From Wickerhamiella versatilis (Eukaryota): a DNA stretch of 64,000 nucleotides. The position numbers and the translations under genes were made by a program. The DNA lies in contig JAQOWU010000008.1 of assembly GCA_030867685.1 (NCBI GenBank), positions 434,001-498,000 of the forward strand, given 5' to 3'. Positions 30,029 through 48,507 of this stretch are shown piece after piece; within the stretch, counting starts at the first letter, position 1, and the number at the start of each line of letters is the position of its first letter. The notes under the pieces were generated by a model that made no database searches, was not told the origin of the DNA, and worked only from the letters and a program-made list of their open reading frames with translations.

Positions 30029-30110
30029 GGCACTTTGGCCGAGCGGTCTATGGCGGTACGTTCAGGTCGTACTCTCTCATGAGGCGAGGGTTCGAATCCC
30101 TCAGGTGTCA
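30029..30110 (+). tRNA. tRNA-Leu(CAG), intronless, 82 nt
   Basis: Acceptor GGCACTT/AGGTGTC with A73; A box TGGCCGAGCGG; anticodon arm GTACG-TTCAGGT-CGTAC (CAG at 30063-30065); long variable arm; T arm GAGGG-TTCGAAT-CCCTC. Confidence 0.95.
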
Positions 30111-30114
30111 CTAC

Positions 30115-46275: not shown

Positions 46276-46432
46276 AACTTTACACCATTAAGTTGCACAT
46301 AATTTTAACTTCTAATTACATCCTATTTTAGCATAACTCGTTAGGTGTAGAGGTGGCTTCGCAGCTAAGCTTAGCTTACTGTTACGCGTTCGGATTACGT
46401 GGTATCCGTCTCTCTCTCTCTTTTGTACTGGG

Positions 46433-46963
46433 ATGAACGCCGTGTATTCGCGACTCGCGAACCTTCAAATGTCTGGCGGAATTAGCCTCGACAACATTCG
46501 TAACGAAACCAGCAATTTGCGTAGTCGTTTCAGTAATCTTCGTGGCCCACGGGACTTCTTCGATTTCAAGCGCGTGTCTCGTCCCTTAGGCTGGGGCGAT
46601 GCGCAATCCAGGGTGACCTTTAACCTAAGATATTTTTCCAGTGATTATTCTGTGATAATTTTATCGCTCGTGGTATACGCTTTGCTCACAAACTTGCTCC
46701 TATTGTTTGTTCTAATATTAGCGGTGGGAGGATTTTTGGGTATTTCTGCACTTGGGGGAGCCGATCTGGTCTTGCCAGGAGGCCTTGTGATCACTTCTCA
46801 GTCGCTTTATATCGCTTTGGGAGTGGTCACCGTTCCGCTTTTCATTATCGCGTCACCGATGGCTACAATGTTTTGGCTCATAGGAGCAGCCGCTGTGACA
46901 ATCCTTGGCCACGCAGCTCTATTGGAAAAACCACTTGAGAGTGAGTTTGCTGAACAGGTTTAG
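46433..46963 (+). CDS. YIP3: PRA1-family protein Yip3
   Basis: FFDFKRVSRP, SRVTFNLRYFSSDY, LGHAALLEKPLESEF. Confidence 0.92.
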   Translation: MNAVYSRLANLQMSGGISLDNIRNETSNLRSRFSNLRGPRDFFDFKRVSRPLGWGDAQSRVTFNLRYFSSDYSVIILSLVVYALLTNLLLLFVLILAVGGFLGISALGGADLVLPGGLVITSQSLYIALGVVTVPLFIIASPMATMFWLIGAAAVTILGHAALLEKPLESEFAEQV

Positions 46964-47011
46964 TTCTATAGATACTTTCTTCGTTATATAATATGTCTTA
47001 GGCTGCGTTAG

Positions 47012-47099
47012 CTTGATCAGAACCACGCCTTGTCAGGGGCGATTTTCAGCAAATGATGCCTCAGTTGACCGTCGTGAGTTGTGGGAGCATCATCTCAAG
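47012..47099 (-). ncRNA. SNR73: Box C/D snoRNA, snR73/U35 homolog (25S Cm2959)
   Basis: Box C ATGATGC, guide CTCACGACGGTC complementary to LSU GACCGUCGUGAG, D' CTGA (D+5 lands on the first C), box D CTGA, stem CTTGA/TCAAG. Confidence 0.9.
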
Positions 47100-47109
47100 T
47101 AAAACTTAC

Positions 47110-47183
47110 CTTCAGGTTATAAATATATCCCCACACATAAAGTCGGTTGTATGCTTGCAAAATTAAATGAAATCATCATTAGC
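47110..47183 (-). ncRNA. SNR74: Box C/D snoRNA, snR74 homolog (18S Am28), apparently exonic
   Basis: Box C ATGATGA, guide GCAAGCATA complementary to SSU UAUGCUUGU, D' CCGA (the D+5 rule lands on A28), box D CTGA. Confidence 0.75.
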
Positions 47184-47257
47184 CTCCGAGGTAGAAGTCA
47201 GTTGCAGGCAGTGCCCACCACCTAAAACCTCATCTATCCCGCTGTCATGTTAGTGCT

Positions 47258-47344
47258 GCCCTCAGTAGCGTAGGTTTTCTAGGCCCACTAAAAGCTTTTC
47301 ACTCAGCGAATTTCAGTGCCCAGTGCTGTAAATCCTCATTGGGT
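47258..47344 (-). ncRNA. SNR76: Box C/D snoRNA, snR76 homolog (25S Cm2197)
   Basis: Box C ATGAGGA, guide AGCACTGGGCA directly before D' CTGA (LSU UGCCCAGUGCU), box D CTGA, CCC/GGG stem. Confidence 0.88.
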
Positions 47345-47374
47345 ACATACCCATTTGTCTATTCTTTCTTGTTA

Positions 47375-47467
47375 GCACATCAGTCCATGTGTTGCAGCAA
47401 CCAATTTTTCTCAGCACGAGTTGTGCTCTGATAATTCCAGCTTATAGGTTTGAAGCATCATCTGTAC
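47375..47467 (-). ncRNA. SNR77: Box C/D snoRNA, snR77 homolog (18S helix-18 loop, Um578 region)
   Basis: Box C ATGATGC, guide AGCTGGAATTATC complementary to SSU GGUAAUUCCAGCU, box D CTGA, terminal stem GTACA/TGTGC. Confidence 0.85.
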
Positions 47468-47486
47468 ATACCCTTTCGGTTAGTCT

Positions 47487-47566
47487 GTCCTCAGTTTGTG
47501 CATTATGATCATAAAAACATTTCACAAACTCTAGTTTGTATTTTTAATGGTTGATCTTCACCGGAC
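47487..47566 (-). ncRNA. SNR78: Box C/D snoRNA, snR78 homolog (25S Um2421, S. cerevisiae numbering)
   Basis: Box C GTGAAGA, guide CAAACTAGAGT complementary to LSU ACUCUAGUUUG, D' GTGA, box D CTGA, terminal stem GTCC/GGAC. Confidence 0.85.
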
Positions 47567-47673
47567 TTACTCTTATCCTCCTCTCCTATTCAGGGGGTGG
47601 ATAGTAATGCAAAAACTGGAAAAACAGTCAGCAGTGACTTGGTTAAAATATGTATACTTGATTATGTAAGGAT

Positions 47674-47988
47674 CTATTTACCGAGCGTGACGCCCACATT
47701 CTCCAAGAATACCACGTTGGAGGCACCATTAGCGACCTTATCGATAATAGCTTTATTGAATGCCTTGCCATGTTCAGTGCCCATGTGTGCCTTAAATCCC
47801 TCTTCACCATAGTAGGTCTCTTCCACATGGAAAGTATCAGGATCATCCTTTAGAGAATAAACCTCGAATCGTAGATTGCCTGGCTCTGCTCTAACGCTCT
47901 CAGCTAAGTCGCAAAGAGCATCGGCAACAAACTGGCGCTGACCAGGCAGCGCAGTCATCGTAGCATAAAGAGTTTTGATTTCCGGCAT
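47674..47988 (-). CDS. ABM (antibiotic biosynthesis monooxygenase) family, putative quinol monooxygenase-like; bacterial-looking
   Basis: 104 aa; VRAEPGNLRFEVY...DPDTFHVEETY...FKAHMGTEH matches the dimeric alpha-beta barrel ABM signature. Confidence 0.85.
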   Translation of the reverse strand: MPEIKTLYATMTALPGQRQFVADALCDLAESVRAEPGNLRFEVYSLKDDPDTFHVEETYYGEEGFKAHMGTEHGKAFNKAIIDKVANGASNVVFLENVGVTLGK

Positions 47989-48507
47989 TGTAAATACGAG
48001 TTTATGAGTAGCTCAAAAGTGGAGTATCTGGCTTATTTATATATCGTTTATTACTCCCGACTTAGTGACAGCAAAGCGCCTTTGTGCTCTCTTGTGGTTA
48101 GGGTATCTCCTCGAGTATTTTGGGCTCGTCGTATCGTACTCCACGTATTTTTATGGAACACGGTAGAATCCAGCAGCTAATATGAATTACGCAACGTTAT
48201 AATAAGCACCACGGCACACGCACACATATCCCATAAATTGCCTAATATTGTGTGCTAAGACGGCAAATTAGAAGCTAAATACATGAGAAAACAATCCCTA
48301 TAACAGAGCAATACTCTTTTTTTAAGGCAACGCTCATTATATATATAAGGTCATGCGCTGGGGTTTGGAATACTCACAGCTTGGTTAAACTAATTGGCCT
48401 GATACAAGGGCCCGTGATGAGACACTCAGCTTTAAGCCACTCGCGAAGCCCAAAAAACAACACAGGCTGCGACATCCACGTCCCAGAAAGAGCTCCGACC
48501 AGCAGGC

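Follow-up and report, generated by a model that had tools for sequence, protein, structure and literature searches.

A spliced cluster I snoRNA host in Wickerhamiella versatilis with four guide-filled introns and an exonic snR74-like guide

Introduction

How does a small nucleolar RNA (snoRNA) that lies in an exon mature when its neighbours on the same transcript lie in introns? This question is raised by a locus of the budding yeast Wickerhamiella versatilis, in a stretch of 64,000 nucleotides (nt) of contig JAQOWU010000008.1 that we call the window and whose numbering we use throughout. Here the minus strand from 47617 to about 46979 is the non-coding host of the fungal snR72-78 cluster, known as cluster I, with its members in the order snR78-snR77-snR76-snR74-snR73. 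We observed that four of these guides fill one spliced intron each and that an snR74-like guide is exonic; this architecture by itself we hold with high confidence. The explanation taken as a whole, namely an RNA polymerase II gene that is a spliced cluster I host with an snR74 matured from the spliced host RNA, is in our view probable.

A survey of cluster I across many fungi reported that, in non-Saccharomyces hemiascomycetes, most, not all, members are found in individual introns, and that some internal exons are tiny or even missing (Luo et al. 2013, PMC3596301). Candida cluster I has its snoRNAs both in exons and in spliced introns, five of them being intronic, and that of Yarrowia lipolytica has only one exonic snoRNA; single-base exons and alternative orders of intron removal have also been described (Donovan et al. 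2016, PMC5033589). In a recent study, precursors with intronic and non-intronic snoRNAs were named 'polycistronic-mixed'. In Schizosaccharomyces pombe, it showed, an RNase III hairpin arises only where the two exons are joined, and so the exonic snoRNA is held back from maturing until its intronic partner has been spliced out (Migeot et al. 2025, PMC12508059).

Results

Five predicted guides on one strand

An earlier note on the window, made from the sequence alone, had proposed at 46990..47600 of the minus strand a snoRNA host free of open reading frames, with four introns each filled by one snoRNA and a fifth snoRNA outside any intron. The minus strand between an upstream gene with an ABM domain and a convergent PRA1-family gene indeed holds no reading frame, and the Rfam matches place the snoRNA families collinearly on this single strand inside 560 nt. 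We call the host non-coding because the longest ATG-started frame of the joined exons, with exon 5 taken to 46800, has only 24 codons. All five RNAs lie where the note had put them; its span proved too short at one end, the host starting at about 47617 as judged from loose ends of RNA reads.

Three guides scored above their Rfam gathering cut-offs: snR78 with 51.8 bits (cut-off 48), snR76 with 77.0 bits (cut-off 55) and snR73 with 39.2 bits (cut-off 37). The other two matches come from a loose-threshold Rfam search of the gaps. The snR77 copy reached 19.5 bits (expectation value E of 4.4 over 1 kb; gathering score 50); it has the 12-nt guide AAGCUGGAAUUA in common with the family consensus, and boxes C and D are present. 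A match to SNORD27 at 47184-47108 scored 20.9 bits (E 1.2 over 1 kb and 0.18 over 151 nt; gathering score 52), and SNORD27 (U27) is tabulated as the human homologue of yeast snR74 (PMC2780460). We also built a fungal snR74 profile from the aligned sequences of five other fungal metagenome loci. On both strands of the 64-kb window it gave a single match, 47180-47142, with an E of 0.0054 under a rough calibration. The copy has the features of a box C/D RNA: boxes C and D, the guide GCAAGCAUA at the family's spacing to box D', and a terminal stem. The methylation target tabulated for snR74 is the equivalent of A28 in 18S ribosomal RNA (PMC2780460).

We conclude that the five RNAs are the predicted box C/D guides of ribosomal RNA methylation of cluster I. 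The order put forward by the note is upheld by the Rfam matches together with the snR74 profile. The covariance-model check that it had suggested succeeded for snR78, snR76 and snR73, was failed on score by snR77 and snR74, and returned no match for snR75 and snR72.

RNA reads define four introns and a one-nucleotide exon

We mapped the reads of four RNA sequencing runs to 46300-48300, of which X20 and X21 are random-primed and paired and X23 and X24 are poly(A) runs; read counts are given below in this order of runs. The reads carry the same species label and, since about 2% of positions disagree with the window, derive from another strain. On the host the listing has seven junctions of the GT..AG type, and they resolve into four introns, each with one guide inside, at all four sites where introns had been predicted (Table 1). 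The fifth snoRNA was also rightly placed outside the introns, since snR74 lies in exon 4, between the junctions at 47241 and 47110.

Intron 1 was removed alone in 14, 8, 17 and 4 reads, intron 2 alone in 92, 90, 20 and 15, and intron 3 alone in 11, 3, 0 and 2; apart from this last form, seen in three of the four runs, the junctions of all four introns are present in every run. Joint removal of introns 1 and 2 (19, 12, 36 and 14 reads) skips 206 nt and not 207, so that the G at 47472 is retained as an exon. Exon 3 is carried in reads without introns 2 and 3 (1, 3, 8 and 5) and in reads without introns 1, 2 and 3, which form the chain exon 1-G-exon 3-exon 4 (3, 1, 26 and 11). The junction of intron 4, which joins exon 4 to exon 5 (6, 15, 28 and 10 reads), was listed as 47004-47126 with 15 letters between and resolves to a canonical GTAAGT...CAG junction; the offset comes from a 1-nt insertion in the RNA strain, at 47125. 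A further 27 and 16 reads with loose ends at 47110 continue into 47002 onward. Overlapping junction reads link exon 1 with exon 4 and the latter with exon 5, and no single read runs across the whole host.

Introns 1 and 2 were each seen removed with the other retained, therefore the order of removal is not fixed; the commonest intermediate has lost intron 2 ahead of intron 1. In the random-primed runs, with rows summed, junction reads of intron 3 numbered 15 against 115 for intron 2 in X20 and 7 against 106 in X21, and intron 3 and exon 4 are covered to equal depth. The scarcity of intron 3 junction reads reflects either slow splicing of the snR76 intron or a short-lived spliced product.

None of the seven listed host junctions skips the snR74 region (47110-47185). 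This bears on the idea that snR74 is itself spliced out, within a rare large intron that runs from the 5' site of intron 3 to the 3' site of intron 4 with exon 4 skipped, for which minor exon-skipping forms of cluster I in Candida parapsilosis and Neurospora crassa offer a precedent (PMC5033589, PMC2780460). At the listing threshold (3 reads, 2 starts) no such junction appeared in the four runs, at depths of about 50-320, and we regard this route as very improbable.

Table 1. Features of the host gene and its surroundings, in window coordinates
Feature	Position	Strand	Length	Details
Exon 1	47571-47617	-	47 nt	5' splice site at 47570
Intron 1	47473-47570	-	98 nt	GTAAGT ... GACTAAC ... AG; holds snR78, 47565-47489
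Exon 2	47472	-	1 nt	single G
Intron 2	47364-47471	-	108 nt	GTATGT ... GCTAAC ... AG; holds snR77, 47468-47378
Exon 3	47351-47363	-	13 nt	seen between the two sides in reads with several introns removed
Intron 3	47242-47350	-	109 nt	GTATGT ... CACTAAC ... AG; holds snR76, 47344-47258
Exon 4	47110-47241	-	132 nt	contains the hairpin and the snR74-like RNA
Hairpin	47187-47241	-	55 nt	first 55 nt of exon 4; about 21 base pairs, four small internal loops, GGGC tetraloop at 47216-47213
snR74-like RNA	47110-47185	-		stem strand AGGCU 47185-47181; C box AUGAUGA 47179-47173; guide GCAAGCAUA 47158-47150; D' CCGA 47146-47143; D box CUGA 47115-47112, then AG
Intron 4	47003-47109	-	107 nt	GTAAGT ... GCTAAC ... 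CAG; holds snR73, 47105-47015
Exon 5 start	46979-47002	-		24-nt loose-end consensus at the end of exon 4 matches 47002-46979; only the 5' part is mapped
ABM-domain gene	47988-47674	-	104 amino acids	upstream, same strand (Pfam)
PRA1-family gene	46433-46963	+		convergent (Pfam)
Ribosomal protein L39 gene	48508-48663	-	51 amino acids	intronless; just upstream of the ABM-domain gene
tRNA	30029-30111	+		anticodon CAG, long variable arm

The host has a start of its own

The start of the host at about 47617 is marked by loose ends that resemble a template-switch oligonucleotide (40 reads, X24), and loose ends of the same type mark the 5' ends of the ABM-domain gene at 48009 and of the PRA1-family gene at 46408; the oligonucleotide is our interpretation of a repeated, adapter-like consensus in these ends. 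For the ABM-domain gene, poly(A) sites are given by poly(T) loose ends at 47628 (140 and 28 reads) and by read starts at 47638-47650. They lie 11-33 nt upstream of the host start, therefore the host promoter lies inside the 3' untranslated region (UTR) of that gene.

One may ask whether the host is rather a read-through product of the ABM-domain gene, the snoRNAs then sitting in introns of its 3' UTR, as intronic snoRNAs of 3' UTRs do in Candida (PMC5033589). The two are on the same strand, just 57 nt lie between the ABM stop codon and the mapped start, and with an upstream depth about 20-fold higher a few per cent of read-through would suffice. However, template-switch-like 5' ends pile up at 47617, and depth drops sharply at the ABM poly(A) ends, 47628-47650. 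We give read-through little credence.

A terminal stem of snR74 that splicing would complete

The D box of snR74 ends 2 nt before intron 4's 5' splice site (AG, then GTAAGT). At the other side of the guide, the hairpin that opens exon 4 is followed by one base, AGGCU, A and box C. We took the register of the terminal stem from the Rfam consensus structures of SNORD27, snR76 and snR78, in which a single base separates the stem's 5' strand from the first two bases of box C, and the 3' strand comes directly after box D. In this register we counted 4, 5, 3 and 5 contiguous pairs for the four guides inside introns, and the terminal stems include GUCC/GGAC in snR78 (4 base pairs), GUACA/UGUGC in snR77 (5 base pairs) and CUUGA/UCAAG in snR73 (5 base pairs).

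For snR74 we counted 2 pairs in the unspliced RNA and 5 perfect pairs (AGGCU/AGCCU) after ligation of exon 4 to exon 5, whose first bases, CCU (47002-47000), would complete the stem. The hairpin and the snR74 stem are both present in the minimum-energy fold of the spliced RNA. The pair probability of the stem is 0.27-0.29 in the spliced RNA versus 0.00 in the unspliced one, and the native exon 5 triplet CCU ranks third of the 64 possible triplets.

Tentatively, snR74 can be read as a split snoRNA gene. The snR73 intron would then break into the stem's 3' strand two bases past box D, exon 4 and the first three bases of exon 5 would together make up the kink-turn stem and perhaps also the 3' end of the mature RNA, and splicing of the snR73 intron would be a prerequisite for assembly or stability of the snR74 small nucleolar ribonucleoprotein (snoRNP). 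This reading is possible, but we think it less likely than not. Another candidate structure, an external UACCU/AGGUA stem in the unspliced RNA that would hide intron 4's 5' splice site, was rejected: the 101-nt fold is no better than shuffles (z 0.51), and the stem competes with the stronger exon 4 hairpin.

A hairpin at the start of exon 4

The hairpin that forms the beginning of exon 4 has a folding energy of -20.8 kcal/mol (z -2.61), and 2 of 200 shuffled sequences reach as good a fold. In budding yeast, Rnt1 acts on hairpins capped by NGNN tetraloops (PMC12508059). With its long stem and a GGGC loop that fits the NGNN rule, the predicted hairpin is a candidate entry site for RNase III. Downstream of snR74, we found no NGNN hairpin in the first 200 nt of exon 5.

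The origin of this segment was considered in two ways. The 5' half of the hairpin (47185-47241 region) resembles the C box and D' guide of snR76, with 20 of 26 positions identical; this score was reached by 16 of 2000 shuffles and 29 of 2000 random 57-mers, in what was one of five comparisons. It is possible but weakly supported that the hairpin is a degenerate partial duplicate of snR76. The 57-nt start of exon 4 was also tried as a remnant of snR75 and rejected, its best alignment to eight fungal snR75 sequences being at chance level (score reached by 454 of 1000 shuffles and 576 of 1000 random 57-mers from the window).

Maturation of snR74 and its alternatives

The four intronic guides would be freed from the excised lariats by debranching and then exonucleolytic trimming, the route established for other intron-encoded snoRNAs (PMC5033589, PMC12508059). 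For snR74, we propose that the ligation of exon 4 to exon 5 would place CCU by the D box and lengthen the stem from 2 to 5 base pairs, and that the snoRNP would assemble on the completed stem and shield the RNA. The cap-proximal part would be removed, plausibly by an RNase III cut in the GGGC hairpin followed by 5'-3' trimming, and 3'-5' exonucleases would take off the tail that stems from exon 5. This route from the spliced RNA could well be the one that snR74 takes, although we stop just short of calling it likely. If snR74 is moreover a split gene, the order implied would be snR73 first and snR74 second, imposed through the snoRNA's own stem.

Several observations weigh against this proposal. 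Read depth is flat over exon 4 and the introns. The junction stem amounts to three extra pairs in one species, noticed post hoc and without covariation, and the chance of three such pairs is about 1 in 64 with Watson-Crick pairing and about 1 in 16 when wobble is allowed. None of the five other fungal snR74 sequences has three or more contiguous pairs in register, therefore the stem is not a requirement of the family. S. cerevisiae Rnt1 prefers AGNN loops, and that of the hairpin is GGGC. The hairpin lies wholly within exon 4 and not across the exon-exon junction, so that a cut there would not itself wait for splicing. Finally, the snR77 and snR74 copies are far under the Rfam gathering scores, and the D' boxes of both are non-canonical.

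Some of these points would fit a release of snR74 that does not need splicing at all, by an endonuclease and exonucleases acting on unspliced or partly spliced precursor as in S. cerevisiae, the stem being then coincidental. Such forms are abundant, intron depth being about equal to exon depth in all four runs, the exon 4 hairpin exists before splicing, none of the five other fungal snR74 sequences has a stem in register, and snoRNA processing can be independent of splicing (PMC5033589). On the other hand, the D box is only 2 nt from the 5' splice site and has no spacer hairpin downstream of it, exon 5 offers no NGNN hairpin in its first 200 nt, and the four neighbours keep in-register stems of 3-5 base pairs, which snR74 has only when spliced. 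We judge such a release rather unlikely.

We also compared the window with the RNA strain. There is no difference in the 422 nt of introns and none in the exon 4 hairpin. In snR74 there are two, a substitution at 47140 and the 1-nt insertion at 47125, both between D' and D. By comparison, the 315-nt neighbouring coding gene has 10 differences, and the flanking coding genes differ by 2-3%. These data touch on the view that the exonic snR74 is a decaying relic that yields no stable snoRNA, its function being lost or supplied elsewhere. Both strain differences in the snoRNA-bearing part of the host fall in snR74, which also has its low Rfam score and its non-canonical D' box. Yet neither difference touches a box or the guide, boxes C and D are without a flaw, the guide agrees with the family consensus both in sequence and in its distance from D', and non-canonical D' boxes occur in other fungi too. 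A relic appears improbable to us.

As a separate observation, four base changes in the snR74 guide region (47147, 47151, 47153 and 47163) were seen in 30-70% of reads, only in the two poly(A) runs and there only among reads lying on the plus strand; X20 and X21 do not show them, and they possibly come from chimeric or tailed molecules.

Members not detected and the form of snR78

The full set of seven members is not present at the window locus as far as could be detected: neither snR75 nor snR72 gave an Rfam match, whether in the cluster (E up to 10) or across the 64-kb window (E up to 1). A scan of metagenomes with a 14-nt word of the snR76 guide returned 116 loci, eight of them with a real snR76. 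All eight look like distant fungi, none being a close relative. In these other fungal loci the snR75 model scored 59-86 bits in eight of eight. As for snR72, its absence from cluster I is frequent (PMC5033589).

The stretch ACGTCAGT before box D is absent from the window snR78 and present in five of six other fungal snR78-like RNAs. Judging from PMC3596301 and PMC2780460, ACGTCAGT would correspond to a second guide of the snR72 type; if it does, the window snR78 is therefore a single-guide form.

Surroundings of the host

The ABM-domain gene is very highly expressed, with a depth of about 10,000 in the poly(A) runs. On the plus strand, the 3' ends of the PRA1-family mRNA fall at 46994-47013, inside intron 4 and exon 5 of the host, therefore the host and PRA1 transcripts overlap in antisense. 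Beyond the ABM-domain gene lies the ribosomal protein L39 gene (Table 1).

Apart from the cluster, the only Rfam hit above its gathering score in the 64-kb window is the tRNA at 30029-30111. By alignment it has U33 and the discriminator base A73, which by tRNA identity rules are of the leucine type and which would suggest standard decoding of CUG.

Discussion

The host of the window holds at least one intronic and at least one non-intronic snoRNA, and so belongs with the precursors named polycistronic-mixed. The earlier note had supposed that such a hybrid intronic/exonic arrangement might be new. This did not hold, since mixed forms of cluster I and single-base exons are already in print (PMC5033589, PMC3596301); the locus is a further example. 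Its other proposal, an intermediate between fungi with all-intronic clusters and the intronless cluster of S. cerevisiae, agrees with what these two papers report on non-Saccharomyces budding yeasts. As for its idea that one member leaves the host by a route other than splicing, the sequence suggests that snR74 may nonetheless need the removal of the adjacent intron in order to mature. The model of splice-site degeneration is said to originate with Mitrovich et al. 2010.

The S. cerevisiae snR78-snR72 polycistron (PMC5033589, citing Qu et al. 1999) has the same families in the same order on one transcript, and a hairpin in the spacer by an exonic snoRNA is common to both. There, all seven snoRNAs are exonic with Rnt1 hairpins between them, whereas in the window four are intronic, snR74 is exonic, and snR75 and snR72 are undetected. 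Cluster I of Candida and Y. lipolytica resembles that of the window in having a host without coding capacity, introns with one snoRNA each, exons that are tiny or of a single base, a mixture of exonic and intronic guides and, often, no snR72 (PMC5033589, PMC3596301). The window locus differs by being also without a detected snR75, by a commonest intermediate that has lost intron 2 before intron 1 and, in comparison with the double-guide snR78 of other fungi, by an snR78 without the presumed second guide.

At the all-intronic end, N. crassa (PMC2780460) and three metagenome loci (L052, L057 and L080) have the order 78-77-76-(75)-74-73 with one guide per intron. In these three loci snR74 sits between a 5' splice site and a branch point, in agreement with published accounts of filamentous fungi and unlike the exonic snR74 of the window. 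Likewise, snR75 is present in eight of eight other fungal loci and was not detected here.

The S. pombe mamRNA/snR107-snoU14 precursor (PMC12508059) also combines an intronic and a non-intronic snoRNA, and in both cases a structure formed after exon ligation could order processing. The elements differ. In S. pombe the conditional element is a Pac1 hairpin, whereas the hairpin of the window is unconditional and the conditional element would be the snR74 stem: no RNase III hairpin spans the junction here, which is spanned by the 5-base-pair stem of the snoRNA. The position differs too, the S. pombe exonic snoRNA being downstream of the intron and snR74 being upstream of the intron that splits it, between two intronic guides.

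We found no description of a terminal stem across a splice junction in the open-access literature. Likewise, the open-access text searched gave no account of an exonic guide that lies internally and abuts a 5' splice site, nor of a cluster I that has lost snR75. Two features may be new, the snR74 stem completed at the junction and the GGGC hairpin at the start of exon 4.

For annotation, the locus provides five snoRNAs and a five-exon non-coding gene with a 1-nt exon. It also offers, at the level of the transcript and with mapped junctions, an example in the fungal series of snoRNA clusters that has all-intronic forms at one end and all-exonic forms at the other. The budding yeast it comes from seems not to be among the species covered by the cluster I papers cited here. 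How processing order is controlled in mixed precursors was posed as an open question in 2025 (PMC12508059). If the junction stem is functional, it would represent a second and simpler way to make the maturation of an exonic snoRNA wait for the splicing of its intronic neighbour.

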